Below the pieces are notes generated by a model. It was not told where the DNA came from, made no database searches, and saw nothing but the letters and a program-made list of their open reading frames with translations. DNA of 56,932 nucleotides, filler included, from Circinaria calcarea (taxonomy: Eukaryota), in NCBI GenBank assembly GCA_051942165.1. It is 7 parts of 7 records of this genome, joined end to end, with 100 filler letters (N's around TTAATTAATTAA, not from the genome) between each part and the next. Parts side by side here need not be neighbours in the genome. Positions count along the whole stretch, not along the records: positions 48,910 to 56,932 come from JAVECS010001187.1; 6 more parts are not named here. The stretch is one strand, 5' to 3'. The translations under genes were made by a program, and so were the position numbers. Of the stretch, positions 40,686 through 54,827 are shown in pieces. How positions within the stretch are numbered: position 1 is the stretch's first letter; the number at the start of each line of letters is the position of its first letter.

Positions 40686-40785
40686 NNNNNNNNNNNNNNN
40701 NNNNNNNNNNNNNNNNNNNNNNNNNNNNNTTAATTAATTAANNNNNNNNNNNNNNNNNNNNNNNNNNNNNNNNNNNNNNNNNNNN
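40686..40785. other. Artificial contig spacer
   Basis: N44-TTAATTAATTAA-N44. Confidence 0.99.
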
Positions 40786-41985: not shown

Positions 41986-44262
41986 CTATTTGGGACAGTC
42001 TTTATGAGAAGTGGTGCCATGGTCATGATTGGTCTCGTGTCCCAGTCTATCCGATACCTGGTGCGCTTGACCTGCTGCTCGCTCGCTTTCTTTTCCAAAT
42101 GGTGTTCCATTGACACCGTAGGTATTGTTTGAGGACGGCAGGTCTGGACGATACTTTTCTAGGGTCTCAATCTGACGTGAATGCCAGTTGTCCTTTGTAG
42201 TGGGGATGAAGGGTCGACGCATAGCGCTAGATGACGCTCCCCTAATACCCGAGTGTGGGAGGTTCCTAGGTTGACGCGGTAAGGCGTCCTGCGAAGTGGC
42301 CTTAGGGCAGCTGGCGCAAGTATCCGGCATCAAAGGATCCGGGTGGGAATAATACCTTGGACTCCACGCGTTACTCGCTTGTGTTGCATAGCGTTGCTGG
42401 AAAGACGTAGTCCACGGCGAGGCAGACATCGGAGGATTTCCAGACGGTCCTCCCAATAAACCATAATGCTGCACTTGCGTGGCGTTCTCGGCAGCAGTAA
42501 CGGTGCCGGGGGTGTTCCGTGGAGAATCCCATGAATACTCGGCAGACTCCTTACTCCATGGGTGGGCAGTATAAGGGACCGTGGTCAGCTGTGAGTGCGG
42601 CAGCTGACGCTGGGAAAAGTCTAGCTTCGCAGCACTACCTTGTCTCGACTTCTCCCCAGGCATAAGCGCAACCCTTGAGGTCCCTCTAGTTCCAAAAAAT
42701 CCTCCCTGCTTTAATTTGTTACGTAACGGTCGTCGCTCAGTTGGAAAAGGCGGTGTAGGGACCCCTTCTCCGTAATGTGAACTCGCGCGTGTAGGCGTGT
42801 CTACTTCCATAGGCTGATGCCCAACTGACTGCTCCCATGTGAAAGGATCCGGAAACTCGGAACCAATTTGGAGTGTTGAAGGCGCTTGGGTTGGTCGTGG
42901 TAGTGGACTGGAGCTCGCTTGCTTGGAACCCCATGCTACTCCGTTAGGAATCACGGTAGCTGTGGTATGATTGGCACCGTAGGGCGTATTGTGCCCGACA
43001 GTATCACGACATTCATCTTGATTGAGTGCCATGAGACCTTGGAGAGCTGGCAGTAATTGATCTCTAGGACTACTAACCTGATCATCAGACATGGTTGTAG
43101 GATAACGATGCGACGAGACATCGACGTGTGACTCTTCGGCTGTAGGTGTGAGTGGCCATTGAAGGTCGCTGGTGTCACTCATTGACTCGTTCCAGGTACG
43201 GAGGTTTGCATTGTTAGCCGCTAAGGTAAGCTCCTCTTCCTGATTAGCATCAGGAAGGAAATCTCCTTCTGAATTCGTATTCCAATCATATGAGACTCCA
43301 GGAGAATGATGTTGCTGTGGCCTCCAGAGTTCAGCCTCAGGCGTATCAGTCCTCAGTGGTCCGGAATTAGCAACGATGACCTCAGGATAATTCCGCTTTA
43401 GGTCCCAAATCATGTCTTCTCCTGAAGATTCTTGATAGTCCTTGCCCTCAACTTCGCCCACTCCATGGTGCTCACCACCTTCATTGGTGTCTTTGCCTTT
43501 TGGTCGTTGACTTCCCCACATCCGCTGCGGAGAAGAATCTGGTGTAAGTTGGTCTTCCTCACCATCTAAGTCATCCTCGGATGATTCATCCCAGTAACCG
43601 TCCGTGGCTTCATTCACCGTCAAATCATAGAATTTAAGCTGGATGGCTTTGTCGGCGTCCACAAGGTACTTTGAAATAGCATGTCCATCTCGTAGTACAG
43701 CCATGTTATCTTGTTGCAGACCTAAATGCTTAGCGGCATCCGGAAACTCATCATGGTAGATACGCTGGATGGTCCGGTGAAGATGGCGACGAAGTTCGAA
43801 GACGGAAAGAGTTTCGGGAAATTTGAAGTCCACAGAGAAATCGCCACGGTGAGTGGATTGAAGGGGTTCCACATGAATACGAACTTCGCGATGGAAGGCA
43901 AATCCGAATTTCGCCCCATCCTTGAGAAACTGCTGCCATAAGCGTTCATTGATGACAGCACCATTTTCTGCATAAAGAACAAGATGCCCGTCACCGCCCA
44001 CAAACTGGGATAGTTCATCCTTCAGATGCTGAATTCGGCATCAGTAAACGGAGCAGCTGGTGAGAGTATGAAGACCGTACCTGCCAGTCTGCTACTGCTT
44101 GCAGAGGGAACTGATAGATAGTAGCTTTCGGATCCTCGAAGAAGAATAGGTCGATAGTAGGCACTCTGTTTGTGGTAGCAGACCTATTTCATTTCAGCTG
44201 TATTCACTCTAAGACTAGAACGAAACTTACTTGTTATCGACAGCCCATGCATCGTATGCCAT
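41986..44262 (-). CDS. Hypothetical protein with putative N-terminal ubiquitin-like domain and long disordered tail
   Basis: Two short spliced exons (MAYDAWAVDNK|..IDLFFFEDPKATIYQFPLQAVADWQ|) join the 671-codon ORF (HLKDELSQF..LVLYAENGAVINERLWQQFLKDG). Remainder is acidic and S/P/T-rich. Confidence 0.65.
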
Positions 44263-48376: not shown

Positions 48377-48809
48377 ATGAGGACTTGGATAATATCTTGC
48401 TTCTAATATACCAGCGAGGGTTTTCTTAGTTCTGTTATGGCATGCAACGAATCTTTTACTCTTACTTGTGGATGAGCACCTCACGGTGGAAAATGGGTCA
48501 TCCAGTCGTCCGGTTCCTTTGAATATCCAATTCCTCTTTGTGGTTTAATCATGTGCCACACGAGCCATACTATCTTAACCTATCTTATCCCCGATATCAA
48601 CAAAGACTATTAGATTTTTTTTAAGAGGCATATTTCTTATGGATTTTTCTCCAAGTGAAACTGACCACTCGAACCCCCTTAATACAATAGACAATAGTAG
48701 ATGGAGGTACTCTTTTCTCTTAATCCCAACAACGATATATACCCGCATTCCAAAATCTAGACCGTACCGTACGCTTGGATATACGAATCGATCCAGCGCG
48801 GGGGGGGGG

Positions 48810-48909
48810 NNNNNNNNNNNNNNNNNNNNNNNNNNNNNNNNNNNNNNNNNNNNTTAATTAATTAANNNNNNNNNNNNNNNNNNNNNNNNNNNNNNNNNNN
48901 NNNNNNNNN
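48810..48909. other. Artificial contig spacer
   Basis: N44-TTAATTAATTAA-N44. Confidence 0.99.
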
Positions 48910-50062
48910 GAATTAAGCGACGACCCCCCCTGAGACTCGGGGTAAAAACCTCGCCTATGTTGGAAGTCCACAATAAGAGCATTTTCGTAGCATAGATAGT
49001 TTTACACACTTATATGCTAATCATACATGCTGCTCAACAGCCCCATAGCCTGTGCTTTCCGGACTCGGTTGCGTCGAAGGCGAAGAGTTAGAAGTACGCG
49101 GTGAATGGAATAATTTAATAAATATATGATTGAAAAATTTACAGCTGGGGAATTTATACAGTGTTAGAAAAATATATATTAAATACAGAGCCAAGCATAC
49201 TCTATGCCATGCCGAACTCTGTGCCGAACTTCTATACGCAGAAGTTCTGTACTACCCCATATTAACAATAGCGGTGGTTGCAGAGTTTTCCCCTTGGCTT
49301 CGCAGTTTACGAACCACACATGTTATATAGTATATCGACTAATGCGTACACACTGAATACCGTTTTCATGCATTGCCTAAGTCTCTTCCTGCCATGTATT
49401 CAACATGGTGGGGTTTCTTAATTAGACGTTGGTCCTATTAGGATTCAAGACTTACAGCTGGACAGAAGTTTACTCCCAACACCAGGGTCGGTAGATTCAC
49501 ATTGATGCGTGGGAGGGGACCTGAGATAATCCACGATTGTATACACAGAAGGTTGTAGTTCGATGAACGGGGGTACTTGTGGCCCCTGGCGATCAGACTC
49601 TCGGGCTGTTAAGCTTCTAATGTGTTTTCGCGTCTGCGCAGAGAAAGGGAGAGGGAAAGGGAGATTAGAAAGGTGGCGTGCATGGAACTAGCACCAATGG
49701 ATCTCGTCATCCCTACCAACGAACCACGCCCCTCCTCCCCTTACCTCGTCAGATCTCCGAACTCTACTGTGGAATGTTTACATATTCATATCCACGGCTA
49801 AGCAGCAGAGAATAACCCTCTCCTTCCTTCCCCGAAGTCCCCCTTTGAGATAAGAGAAGGTAGTCTAGTTCTCGGCCATAGGATTCGGGAGGCAGGAGGA
49901 GGGAAACGAGAACAGAGAGCCTGCAGGTTGGAGAAGAGGATTTAATGGCCCATCATCACCACCGACTGATTCTGACTCTGCCTCTGACTCTTAACTTCGA
50001 CACAACCTTGCCCTTCCCCCGCATGAAAGTATCGAGAGGAGGTAGGGTAGATAAGCCTTAAA

Positions 50063-50607
50063 TCACGTTGCCTCAATCTCATGGTATCTAAATCCTTCTT
50101 CCTCCCAGTTTCTCGTCAGGCAATCCAAGATACCTATAATATCTTTTGGGCTATCCACGCAATGAACGCAGCTCGAGATCCCACCCCAGAAATAGAACTT
50201 GTCGCCATCCTTGAAAAGGTATAAGGCATCGTCCGCCTGCCCGAGTATAGGAATAGGGTTGATGAATCGGGTTTCATAACCATAATCATTGAGCTCTTGT
50301 GCGTCTGGGACGGCGTCGAGCAGATCAGGATCGTTACACCAGTCCGAAGGGATCAGGCTCTCCGGCACGACCTTGTAAAATGCGCGGCCCTTGTAGTGCT
50401 GAATTTGAAGAGGATTCTGTTATCAGATATAGACGTTAGTACTATGAATATATATTGTTTGAGATGAGCGTACCATGGGACTTTTGCTCGTCGAAGCCGT
50501 AGTCAAGGCTTTCCCGTGAAACGATGTATTCTAAAGTATGTAGTTAGATACACTTAGAACGCACAGCTGTGAGGGTGGTAAAAAAGACTAACTCGGGTCG
50601 CGGCCAT
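50063..50607 (-). CDS. Small acidic protein (141 aa), putative SUKH/Smi1-Knr4-like immunity protein
   Basis: Exons 50607-50593, 50530-50474 and 50416-50063 with phase-0 GT-AG introns and CTAAC branch sites. Core sequence NPIPILGQADDALYLFKDGDKFYFWGGISSCVHCVDSPKDIIGILDCL. Gene model is well supported; the fold call is inference. Confidence 0.6.
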
Positions 50608-51187
50608 AGTCGTAACTCGAGGGTACTGAAATAGGATAGCTAGGACGTTTCGAAATTTAGGTACTACAGGTTTGTATGTCGACCGAAAAGCGAAGGATCG
50701 AACAAATCGACCGAGCATCGGTGAATTCTTCTCTCAGAATGAAGGACCAAGCTCTATTGGAGAACCGTCGTGTAGGAAGCAACGTAGGGTCGTCAGGTTA
50801 TGGCGTAAGGGCATGAGGGTTCGAGGTCAAGGAAAGGTAAAGGGGATAGCGGAGTTTCATAGCCTTCGGTGAGATGATTATGTTCTTTGGGTTTGGTCAT
50901 TTGAGTAGGCTCGGCAGAGTTTCATTCACGATACTTTGAATTACTGGCGCCTCAAATGAATTGATGGAAAATAAGTTGACCCGATCCGATGATCTCTATT
51001 CACTTTATACAATGCCTCGGTATAGCAATAGATCAATATTTAAGTTCATAGCATCCCCCAAAACTAAATATTCCTGTAGCAGTTAGAAAACTGCTTAAAG
51101 TACATGCAATCTCTATCTGTCTAGCCTAATAACGTAGGCTCCTCCAAAACCCTATCAATCCTCCGTCTACTACCATCAGCTAAGACC

Positions 51188-52321
51188 ATGGCATCCCCGA
51201 CCCTTGCTGGACGTATCATTAAACCGGCGCACCTCCTATTCGACATCAACCAAGGGCTATCCTTTAACAAAGCTGATGTGAGTTTTACCCGGGAGCCTAA
51301 GCCAAAGAATATCCTGCCAATGATTTTTGTAACCTTAAAGATACTAACACGAAGGGGGAACTAGATAGCAGCTTTCTTGAAGACCACGCCCGGAATTCTA
51401 AAAGCTAATGGACTGCAAGGGGATGAGCTCAAGTCACTACAGGATTGTGTTGATATATTACGTACGAACATGTAAGCTTCAGTAACAATCCCAGCTACTA
51501 TCACGGATCAATGCTGAGGTTCCACTAGCGAAAACGAAAAGGTAGTAGTTCCGAACCTTGACAAACCACCTGTGGCAAGTATTAAAGGGGTTCGAGTGCC
51601 CCTTTACTCTACTTCAGACATGCTAGCTCACATTCTTTCTACCACTGGGATTCCCGAGAAAAGGCAGGATCCGAGCGAACAAGCAACCATGGAAAACTAT
51701 TATGTCCCCTACCTCGCCATGTTCCATCAGTGGAACAATGTTATCTCCCCAAAATCAGTGTACCAGCCGTATATGGCCTCTATTCTGGTCTTTGGTACCG
51801 ATGGGTTATCGCCGCCTTTGATCTTAGGGTCCTCAAATTACAGGCAAAACGATCAAAAGAGTTTGCTCATAGAACGGGCACGAGCCGATCTGAAAATTGC
51901 AGGTTTGATTCCAAAACTAGAAACGAAGTCAACCATCCTGGCAGATAACTACGGAAACTGCGCCGAGACGACCCAATGGCTGATTATGAGGTAGGAATCT
52001 AAAATGCTGAAATGTAGCCATTTCTCCTTAAGCGCTATGCTAACGAATTTGCCTAGGAAACTTGGGCTTTCCAAGGCAGGAGTGAGTCGAGGAATTGCGT
52101 TGGAGAAAACCAAGGGGAACTCTGGTATGAAGACGTGGGACCCTAATAACGTTGCACAGCGGTTGCGCCATCCCTGCCTTGTCTGTGGACAATTGGCCTG
52201 CCAAGTCGGATTCGAAGAGAAGGATATCGAGAGTCATTTCGGAATTGCAGAAACTGCGCGAAAACTAAATCCTGATTGGAAACCCGGGAAAAGGCAGCAA
52301 AAGGGGCCGTTCCAAAAGTAA
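51188..52321 (+). CDS. Zinc-dependent deaminase-fold protein (CxE...PCxxC; YwqJ-like toxin deaminase type), 307 aa
   Basis: Exons 51188-51277, 51365-51471, 51529-51990 and 52057-52321 join in frame (924 nt). Motifs MASILVF, LILGSS, YGNCAET, SRGIAL, RHPCLVCGQL. Confidence 0.75.
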
Positions 52322-54827
52322 GAGGTAGGTATTTGGAAGCAGATTGTACTATAGTCTGGAATGTGTTACGATCCCATTGACTAGTACAGGAGAATGTTTT
52401 CATTGGGACTTTTTCAAAGACGGATAGACTACCTCTGTCACGGGAGTGCAGGCATGCAAAGAAATGTGATAGAATTCTTCCATTCTATCTAGCGCCTGTT
52501 GAAAGGTTCTTTTGAGACCTGCCTGCTCCTTCCTTCTTTCTTATATCAACCTCTGAGGTAGCCTTTTGGTGATGTATAGCTAACTCTACAGCTTTCCAAT
52601 TAAGCAGCCAAAAAAAAAGCAAATCCTATCAGCTCGCTGGTAGTCTCAAGTCGTTCTTGAAAACCCATGCTCAACGGTGGTTTGGCGGGGGCGGGTATTC
52701 TAGCAGCACGGGTAGAAGTCCTGACTGTGAAATCCATCTTCACATTAAGAATTTCAGTCCGTCCCAGCACCATGAGAATAGACGAGCGATACCAGTCCGA
52801 GCTGGAAACTGCTAGTGTATTTCCGATCATCCAATCGGAAAGTGTATGGAGGAGTTATTAACTTAGTTATGCAATTGTAGAACCGCAAAAGGGGGGGGGG
52901 AAGGGGGCGAGCGTAATGCGACCTCCTCAAGCTATGAGATCGGGATGCATTACCAGTCCAGAGTATCTCCAGACTGCATTAGCAGTGGAGTCCGGCTCAC
53001 CCTTTCGGGGTAATAGACCGCCAGTCCGCGCTTTTGGGTCCCAGTGCATTTGAGGCCCTCCAGTAGAGTGTGTAATTGATAGGGGGGCTACCAGCGGCGG
53101 GCTACCTGATGCTTACTAAAGAGCCGGGCAGGAGTCCTTCTCTGCGGACCCAATCCTGGATACTGCAAATAGGGTGGATAGAGCTGAGGGGGATTAATCC
53201 TCCTCTCTTTTTTTTCCATAGACTAGACTATTTCAACTCGCTATCGCCTTCCCAGAAAAAGCCAAGAAAGGCCCCATTCTTTGTCAGGAATATGCGTCCC
53301 GTAACAGGCGCGGAATGAGGCGATCAAACGCCCCCTCGGATGTTTGCCGACTTCATGTTTGTACATGTCTTTCTTCACTTTAGACGCCCGTAGTAGGCTC
53401 ACGGCAGTAGCGCTATTAAGAGTCATGGTTACCTTTCATAAAAGCTTCCCGTGGCGCTTTTTGCCGTAAAGCCCCCGTACGTACGGACCTCTTCCTCCCT
53501 CTTCCTCCCTCTTCTTGCCCTAGGTGCATGCCTTCTTCCCATTACAGAGAGAGCCCATTCCGTCTCCGCACATGGATTTCCTTGACGAGTTTAGAGGAAG
53601 AGAGAGAGAGAGAGAGGTCTTTGGACACTCAGGGTTCGGCTTTAATACCCACCCGTATTACAAGGCGTCCAATGAAATTATCGCCCTGGCAACAAAGTTC
53701 TGTGATATATCTCTTGGATAAGGAGAAAAATGTTATGCAATACGGGAATATCTTACCCCGTTCTGTCAGGTGTCCATCAGCACCGCCGTCCATGATGTGA
53801 TGTGGTGACATGCAGAGAATTAAACAACATCTCTAACCGACCAGGCAAGCCAGGGTAAAGGTACGGGCTTCCGATGAATAAGAAAAAGCGCCGGGTAGGG
53901 TCTGCCGGGTAGGGTGTGAGGTGTGAGGGTGTGATGAGACGGATCCGAAGTAGATGGGGGTGGAAGGGGTTTTCAATCCCATTGACGATACCTAGGGAAG
54001 AAACTTTCAAAGCTGAAGTCAACTGAATCAAGTAATCAAACAATCATCGTACAGAGATTATACTTTGGGAAGGGAAAGAGTTGAAGTGATTTGAGTTGGA
54101 TGATGAAATCCATTAAATGTCTATATACAGCTGATTTTCCTCCTCCTTCTTCTCCTCTAGACGGCCCTTCCTTTCTTTCCTCTTGCCAGATTGGATATAA
54201 GGAGCTAAAACTAATCCGCCCGAGTTGATAAACCGATAGTCGGATAGCTGTGATTCCTCCCGTTGTCCTGATGAATATCTTACACCACCCCCACGTCCGT
54301 CAGACATCTTTCTGGCAAGAAAAATTGAGAAAGGAAAGGCTGGAGTCGCAAAAGAGCGATTGTGGAGAATAAATATAACAAAGAAAAGATTCCAGAGACC
54401 CGGATTGGCTTGCTGGTAAACTCGCAAAGGAGCAAACAGTCTTTTCTTTGGTCGTAAATGGTAGCGAAAATTTGCCGTGAGGAGGTATTAGAAAATATGG
54501 TGAAGGAAAAGCAAACAACAACGCGAGGCCACTGCAAACAGTTCTATAGAGGGCCATAGGGGTATGAAGCAAGGTTATCAAACATCGAAAGCGTCGAAGA
54601 TAACACTAGGACGGGAATAAAACTGGCGCTGGTGTTAAATCCAACGTCGTAACGAGTGATGTGGGGTACCGCGGTGGTAATTATCCATACCAGACGGAAG
54701 TGGTTTCGGGTGAGACAAATTCTATACAAATTGCCATCTACTGCTGATATGGTGGCAGGCGGTGAGAGGCGCGTAGATGTTATACAATTGAGGGGGGGTT
54801 TTTTTTCTCTTCAAAAGTCGTGGTCGA

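Follow-up and report, generated by a model that had tools for sequence, protein, structure and literature searches.

Within a 56,932-nucleotide stretch of the Circinaria calcarea genome (GCA_051942165.1), referred to below as the window, the plus-strand locus 51188–52321 encodes, once spliced, a 307-residue protein that we read as a member of a divergent ascomycete branch of the deaminase superfamily. According to this reading, to which we assign a rough probability of 0.55, the branch is invisible to Pfam, is probably related to the YwqJ-deaminase clade (PF14431) and acts on cytosine in polynucleotides. The reading is carried by two putative zinc-binding motifs, C-x-E and P-C-x-x-C, encoded on opposite sides of an intron; by a predicted fold that superposes on enzymes of the cytidine-deaminase fold; and by profile–profile comparison, in which YwqJ was the best partner among three families tested with multi-sequence alignments. 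A preliminary description of the locus had proposed a divergent deaminase-fold protein with just such split motifs, and both fold prediction and profile comparison support it.

The window is eukaryotic DNA of ~48% G+C with short GT..AG introns. Joining four exons at 51188–51277, 51365–51471, 51529–51990 and 52057–52321 (all on the plus strand) produced a single uninterrupted frame, an open coding sequence of 924 nt comprising 307 codons and a stop. The three intervening GT..AG introns, of 87 nt (51278–51364, donor GTGAGT at 51278), 57 nt (51472–51528, donor GTAAGC at 51472) and 66 nt (51991–52056, donor GTAGGA at 51991), each contain a CTAAC-like branch site followed by a TAG acceptor; in the third, which is in frame, the branch site lies at 52040 and a single in-frame TAG at 51992–51994. 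The YGNCAET codons (51950–51970) fall within the stop-to-stop frame 51518–51994 and the PCLVC codons (52172–52186), which specify P259-C260-L261-V262-C263 and with it two proposed zinc ligands, within the frame 51995–52321; these two frames share one reading frame, with only that TAG between them. Excising intron 51991–52056 thus unites the motifs from separate open reading frames (ORFs) in the 307-residue ORF, as had been predicted. The accompanying claim that annotation at the level of ORFs misses the gene holds insofar as the frames are split by the TAG, but the deposited eukaryotic annotation does include it, unnamed: the spliced product is, residue for residue, the NCBI entry 'MAG: hypothetical protein Q9187_005249 [Circinaria calcarea]' (P0001 below). 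The spliced model is therefore already annotated at NCBI, with function alone unnamed, and since a eukaryotic gene caller had produced it, the gene is 'cryptic' merely for want of a functional name.

Reading the splicing from the sequence, we take the locus to be a genuine nuclear gene with four exons, belonging to a lichen-forming ascomycete. Exon 1, with its ATG at 51188, encodes residues 1–30 and is placed by ORF continuity and its GTGAGT donor; exon 2 encodes residues 31–66, sharing its last codon with exon 3, and contributes to the predicted helices 28–44 and 49–68. No homologue in the 16-sequence alignment described below covers these two exons, and their assignment is based on ORF continuity, canonical splice signals, the start codon required upstream of a conserved hairpin, and the identical NCBI prediction. 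Exon 3 (residues 66–220) encodes this hairpin and the helix that follows it, helix 1 and strands 1 and 2 of the deaminase domain, a helical insert, and the first part of helix 2, where G208-x-C210-A211-E212 lies; all 15 of the homologues kept match it, and the model of a partial paralogue (P0002) begins precisely at its first full codon. Exon 4 (residues 220–307 and the stop) encodes strand 3 (RGIAL), a further insert, helix 3, an SHFG motif and a basic tail, and is covered by two homologues only, P0004 and P0015. In the protein, MASILVF occupies residues 148–154, LILGSS 163–168, CAE 210–212, RGIAL 231–235, PCLVC 259–263 and the basic tail, also noted in the preliminary description, 295–307. 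The span coding for the deaminase-fold domain (51680–52267, plus strand; residues ~117–290) is split by intron 3, and structural alignments of it extend over residues 117/118–307.

Relatives of this protein are few. When 1.84 billion cluster representatives were searched exhaustively with phmmer, 11 proteins came out at E ≤ 1e-3, and 10 of these were kept; the remaining one, a 1236-residue bacterial repeat protein (P0010) matched in nine short stretches, was judged spurious and excluded from all alignments. Word-indexed protein searches likewise gave few relatives (2, 5 and 8 rows), one of them, run with a profile, adding five more and bringing the family to 15 homologues and, together with P0001, to a 16-sequence alignment. 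Named members come from Lecanoromycetes and Dothideomycetes, and include P0002, the partial paralogue in Circinaria calcarea itself (89% identity over exon 3), P0004, a 203-residue protein from Lambiella insularis, and P0014 and P0015, both from Paraphaeosphaeria sporulosa. In the ESM Atlas the nearest entries were three unnamed Ascomycota clusters (102, 83 and 51 members; scores 0.96–0.94), which we take as a lead only. Two scans of JGI metagenome contigs, with 15 and 82 pattern-matching stretches, yielded no confirmed relative, nor did 185,579 prokaryote genomes, with 12 pattern matches, and tblastn found no second copy of the gene in the window.

Conservation within this family centres on the first motif. 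C210, A211 and E212 (codons 51959–51967, plus strand), a proposed zinc ligand and the proposed catalytic glutamate among them, are the same in all 16 aligned sequences, and W134, P146, G191 and G208 each occur in 90% of them or more. Past helix 2 only P0001, P0004 and P0015 continue, and all three contain a G-[IV]-A-L strand followed by a P-C...C motif, which reads PCLVC in P0001, PCGTC in P0004 and, with one extra residue, PCNASC in P0015; two of the three full-length sequences therefore have PCxxC and the third PCxxxC. Full-length relatives have thus kept both motifs and the RGIAL-type strand at 26–35% identity. When the protein was shuffled 200,000 times, an [HC]xE motif followed at 20–70 residues by PCxxC arose in 49 cases.

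AlphaFold2, run on the 16-sequence alignment, gave a model with a mean predicted local distance difference test (pLDDT) score of 82.4 and a predicted template modelling score of 0.84, its C-terminal half informed by three sequences only; the model from the single sequence (pLDDT 35) was unusable. The N-terminal part contains helices 13–21, 28–44 and 49–68, a hairpin (81–84 and 87–90), and helices 94–105 and 120–138. The core follows with strands 148–154 (MASILVF) and 162–166 (LILG), inserted helices 173–189 and 201–206, helix 212–222 beginning at E212, strand 229–236 (RGIAL), a 22-residue insert, and helix 261–269 beginning inside PCLVC, after which short helices extend to residue 301. CAE and PCLVC consequently stand at the N-termini of helices 212–222 and 261–269, respectively, and the modelled elements agree with the order proposed earlier from sequence, namely two strands, the CxE helix, a third strand and the PCxxC helix.

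We compared this model with 48,161 PDB representatives using VIA-align, a search independent of Foldseek, and all seven chains with Z ≥ 5 were enzymes of the cytidine-deaminase fold. The best match was a blasticidin-S deaminase (3oj6_A; 114 residues aligned, root mean square deviation (rmsd) 3.6) at Z 7.0, a value in the range (Z < 8) that the tool calls common for unrelated pairs, followed by a cytidine deaminase (3b8f_A; Z 6.6, 116 aligned, rmsd 3.5); the others were the cytidine deaminases 1af2_A, 3dmo_A and 6l08_B, 2g84_A, and Msmeg3575 (5xkq_A). Ranks 10, 11, 15, 17, 18 and 30 were also deaminases, with dCMP deaminase, ADAT2/3, TadA and guanine deaminase among them. The deaminase superpositions always span model residues ~117–307. 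Re-aligning the top 592 chains from a Foldseek search with VIA-align put cytidine deaminases in the top two places (Z 6.7 and 5.8), and in the Foldseek ranking itself a PPR-DYW deaminase appeared at rank 6 (E 0.99). The structural support comes from the exclusive enrichment of one fold together with the placement of the motifs, and not from the Z score. On the basis of the predicted model, we consider it very likely that the protein has a deaminase fold.

The same comparison bears on what the enzyme might act upon. As the model superposes best on blasticidin-S deaminase and on homotetrameric cytidine deaminases (Z 7.0–5.5, and 6.7 and 5.8 in the re-alignment), a small-molecule enzyme of the CDD/CDA or blasticidin-S type, acting on a free nucleoside, a nucleotide or a nucleoside-like metabolite, is a real alternative, and Iyer et al. 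2011 (PMC3239186, Table 1) list C-A-E with P-C-x-x-C as the CDD/CDA signature. The VIA-align Z scores do not discriminate between deaminase classes, however, because all lie within ~2 units, and apart from PCxxC there is no sequence or profile similarity to these enzymes: an hhalign comparison with 20 dCMP_cyt_deam_1 domains gave a probability of 2.3 (P 0.02) over just 21 columns, around PCxxC only. The fungal protein also departs from these enzymes in its large inserts, in an additional N-terminal region and in the lack of C-terminal strands 4 and 5 in its model, and two features listed for CDD/CDA in that table, the arginine after CxxC and a glutamate in strand 5, are absent from it. We therefore judge a small-molecule substrate to be rather unlikely.

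Placement near YwqJ is instead suggested by clade features and by profiles. Iyer et al. 2011 (PMC3239186, Table 1) characterise the YwqJ clade by Gx[CH]xE in helix 2, by an insertion separating strand 3 from CxxC, by a domain that is often cut short past helix 3 or strand 4, and by a further insert with a conserved histidine. The Circinaria calcarea family displays the first three of these four: G208-N-C210-A-E212; an insert at residues 237–258 between strand 3 and PCLVC; and a C-terminus of ~44 residues after C263 in which no strands are called. The further insert is present too (residues 167–209, with helix 173–189), but no histidine is conserved in it. C-terminal degradation is described for YwqJ, OTT_1508 and other deaminase clades in the same paper (PMC3239186). 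An H-F-G motif some 15–20 residues past PCxxC, after helix 3, is common to P0001, P0004 and many actinobacterial YwqJ domains. An ESM Atlas query with residues 117–307 returned YwqJ-deaminase clusters as the nearest with a Pfam name (scores 0.86 and 0.84), again as a lead only.

For profile comparison, domains were collected from prokaryote genomes with the Pfam models (18, later 22, for YwqJ; 20 for dCMP_cyt_deam_1; 23 for OTT_1508), aligned, and run with hhalign against the family alignment. With 18 YwqJ sequences the probability was 69.9 (P 4.1e-5, 103 columns), with YGNCAE aligned on GRCAE and PCLVC on PCRSC; with 22 sequences it was 46.8 (P 2e-4, 102 columns), with seven diverse sequences 37.7 (P 3.4e-4, 99 columns), and with 11 near-identical Streptomyces-type sequences 3.9 (P 0.011, 95 columns). 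The three full-length family members on their own gave 60.1 (P 8.6e-5, 65 columns), while reversed-alignment controls gave 0.3–0.4 (P 0.17–0.21, 13–16 columns). As a yardstick from the same data, YwqJ against dCMP_cyt_deam_1, two families of one accepted clan, reached 43.7 (P 2.4e-4, 84 columns). In a search with hidden Markov models (HMMs; HMMER) over 61 targets, the six best were all YwqJ domains, at insignificant scores. Comparison with single DddA-like and Toxin-deaminase sequences gave probabilities of at most 2.2, a test of little power because YwqJ itself failed to match those sequences.

The preliminary description had named both YwqJ and OTT_1508 as candidate clades; YwqJ finds moderate support (hhalign 38–70%) and OTT_1508 none (probability 0.2). 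A fungal OTT_1508-like enzyme, from the family of the Neurospora OLD adenosine-to-inosine (A-to-I) mRNA editors and editing adenosines in specific transcripts, would share with our protein a fungal host, divergence and a non-housekeeping character, as well as an N-terminal extension and an insert before helix 2, here residues 167–209 with helix 173–189. Iyer et al. 2011 (PMC3239186) also describe extreme divergence and lineage expansion among fungal OTT_1508 members, and the 23 domains compared here were bacterial members only (P 0.31, 14 columns). The motifs of OTT_1508 and of OLD-1 and OLD-2, HxE and [SG]K-x-C-C-x-x-C, nevertheless differ from the CxE and PCxxC of this family, and neither OTT_1508_deam (PF14441) nor dCMP_cyt_deam_1 (PF00383) matched in Pfam at E ≤ 10. 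An editor of this kind appears highly improbable.

Several results weigh against placing the protein in a YwqJ-like deaminase branch. The Pfam search that had been proposed, including the deaminase families, named no family at E ≤ 10, either for the two frames and a read-through with the TAG as X or for P0001, its pieces and 11 family members, apart from an HTH_17 match in one member (E 0.18) that we regard as noise. Searching the PDB sequences by phmmer with the protein, and by a profile search with the family, found no match at E ≤ 10, and no PDB chain reached E ≤ 0.001 with Foldseek, which ranked an asparaginase first (E 0.31); the VIA-align score of 7.0 is, as noted, of a size often seen by chance. 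Strands 4 and 5 are not called after helix 3, DSSP giving helices only past residue 269. The PCxxC half is seen in three sequences only, one of which (P0015) has C-x3-C spacing. The conserved histidine of the YwqJ insert is not seen in the 16-sequence alignment, where within that insert G191 alone is nearly invariant; the hhalign probability for YwqJ depends on the alignment used (69.9, 46.8, 37.7 or 3.9); and HMMER scores of the YwqJ and family HMMs were insignificant, at most 5.3 bits. Taking the sequence comparisons together, we consider kinship with the YwqJ clade the best-supported placement, at about even odds and not established.

The two groups differ in other respects as well. The prototype of the clade is the LXG/type VII secretion system toxin YwqJ of Bacillus subtilis, reported as a single-stranded DNA (ssDNA) cytidine deaminase (PMC13648612). 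Unlike YwqJ, the fungal protein escapes the Pfam model and is without the conserved insert histidine; its gene is eukaryotic and intron-bearing; neither an LXG nor an RHS module nor an obvious secretion module is present, and no immunity gene is evident next to it; and the protein has an N-terminal helical and hairpin extension. Its hosts are Ascomycota, whereas the eukaryotic members of the YwqJ clade given by Iyer et al. 2011 (PMC3239186) are from basidiomycetes only.

Intron 3 appears to matter beyond this locus. In ten of the 15 homologue records the sequence stops at most two residues away from the site of the intron's donor, and three more (P0006, P0007 and P0017) run on for 10–18 unrelated residues before a stop; ends at this position are as expected if an intron at the same place is present in unspliced ORF calls. 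These protein ends support conservation of the intron 3 position in relatives, and likewise the view that annotation readily loses the active site's second half. P0014, the NCBI model from Paraphaeosphaeria sporulosa, is among the ten, whereas P0015, from a second annotation of that species and 99% identical to P0014 in the overlap, extends into the PC...C exon. The two records also differ at the other end: P0014 has an N-terminus 65 residues longer and stops at the intron site, and P0015 starts later and has the C-terminal exon. With an intron conserved between the zinc-binding halves, ORF-level and some eukaryotic gene calls would drop half of the active site.

Because intron 3 carries an in-frame stop, an unspliced transcript would give a protein ending at R221, ahead of two of the three proposed zinc ligands; any regulatory use of its retention is speculation. 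Such retention also enters into a different explanation of the locus, in which the product is a non-catalytic scaffold without zinc chemistry, or the gene is mis-predicted and its C-terminal exon is never joined in vivo. The missing homologue support for exons 1 and 2, the absence of strands 4 and 5 from the model and the C-x3-C spacing in one relative would fit this explanation. Yet the CAE motif is invariant, the three full-length relatives have kept both motifs and the strand between them despite their low identity, all three introns have canonical signals that together restore one ORF, and three of the five cysteines of the protein are motif cysteines. We regard a non-catalytic or mis-assembled product as quite improbable and an active enzyme as likely.

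In the YwqJ-like deaminase reading, the protein would consist of a lineage-specific helical N-terminus (residues ~1–70), a conserved β-hairpin and helix (~76–117), and a cytidine-deaminase-fold domain (~117–290). C210, before helix 2, and C260 and C263, at the start of helix 3, would hold a zinc ion that activates a water molecule; E212 would shuttle a proton, and the exocyclic amino group of the base would be hydrolysed. A 2026 preprint (PMC13648612) describes the toxin domain of B. subtilis YwqJ as a zinc-type cytidine deaminase that is active on ssDNA, minimally active on double-stranded DNA and inactive on the RNA tested, with no 5′ context preference, and whose activity is abolished by a glutamate-to-alanine change; the same preprint adds that other members of the YwqJ family had shown no activity in earlier screens. 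With YwqJ as the probable closest clade and ssDNA as the reported target of the B. subtilis protein, cytosine in a polynucleotide is the most likely substrate, and by this analogy we lean slightly towards a polynucleotide over a free nucleoside. As to biological role, genome or conflict defence has been proposed for fungal toxin-derived deaminases (Iyer et al. 2011, PMC3239186), and we adopt this as a possible role here.

A bolder version of the same idea, which we put forward tentatively and regard as doubtful, is that these proteins constitute the first recognised Ascomycota family of toxin-derived YwqJ-like polynucleotide cytosine deaminases, serving as an internal mutator or defence against transposons, mycoviruses and foreign nuclei. 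In that case copies left unspliced or annotated wrongly would lack catalytic activity, on account of the conserved intron between the CxE and PCxxC halves and its in-frame stop, and the compact core of ~190 residues would be a new base-editing scaffold.

Several mutator and editing enzymes of eukaryotes descend from deaminases of bacterial toxin systems, which also supply the starting material for base editors. The deaminase superfamily itself is well known; what is new is the unnamed variant. As sequence searches of Pfam, NCBI and the PDB give the family no name, it is invisible to surveys that start from Pfam-annotated deaminases. Among the literature titles on YwqJ, none concerned ascomycete members, although the supplementary alignments of Iyer et al. 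2011 may list some, and no literature was found combining YwqJ with fungal, Ascomycota or lichen terms. If active, the protein would add an ascomycete branch to a YwqJ-like clade whose eukaryotic members, as given in that paper, come from basidiomycetes, and, for lichen-forming fungi as well as others, would be a candidate mutator of DNA or RNA encoded by the fungus itself. It is thus relevant to deaminase evolution and, should it prove of value in base editing, to the mining of base-editor scaffolds.

During the collection of bacterial domains, PF14431 was found in 0 of 301 sampled Bacillota genomes at E ≤ 1e-6, and PF14441 in 0 of 201 sampled Actinomycetes genomes. Among the actinobacterial YwqJ domains (loci L116–L134), five matches to YwqJ-deaminase come from one genome (G004), where a pair lies on one contig with ~600 bp between them, and another genome (G370) has two matches ~500 bp apart; these adjacent matches suggest tandem toxin cassettes.

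The surroundings of the fungal gene are those of an ordinary chromosome: within 10 kb in the window lie genes for CENP-N/CHL4, a bZIP factor and a protein kinase. On either side of the deaminase gene, ~2.5 kb (48400–51187 and 52322–54800) contain no frame longer than 126 residues and no Pfam match among the frames tested, the rest of the window being more gene-dense. About 770 nt upstream, at 50063–50419 on the minus strand, is a protein-like stop-to-stop frame of 118 residues with no methionine and no Pfam match, possibly an exon from an unannotated gene that is transcribed divergently. The only flanking repeats found were an N-run palindrome and a 20-nt inverted match (48666–48685 with 51579–51598), the latter taken as chance. 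Further away, at 41986–44040 on the minus strand, is a Ser/Pro/Thr-rich open frame of 684 residues that belongs to no Pfam family. Runs of N occur at ~40690–40737 and 48810–48909; the former, an assembly gap or a masked stretch, follows a long microsatellite of the (GA/TC)n type, whose translation reads SLSLSL/ERERER.

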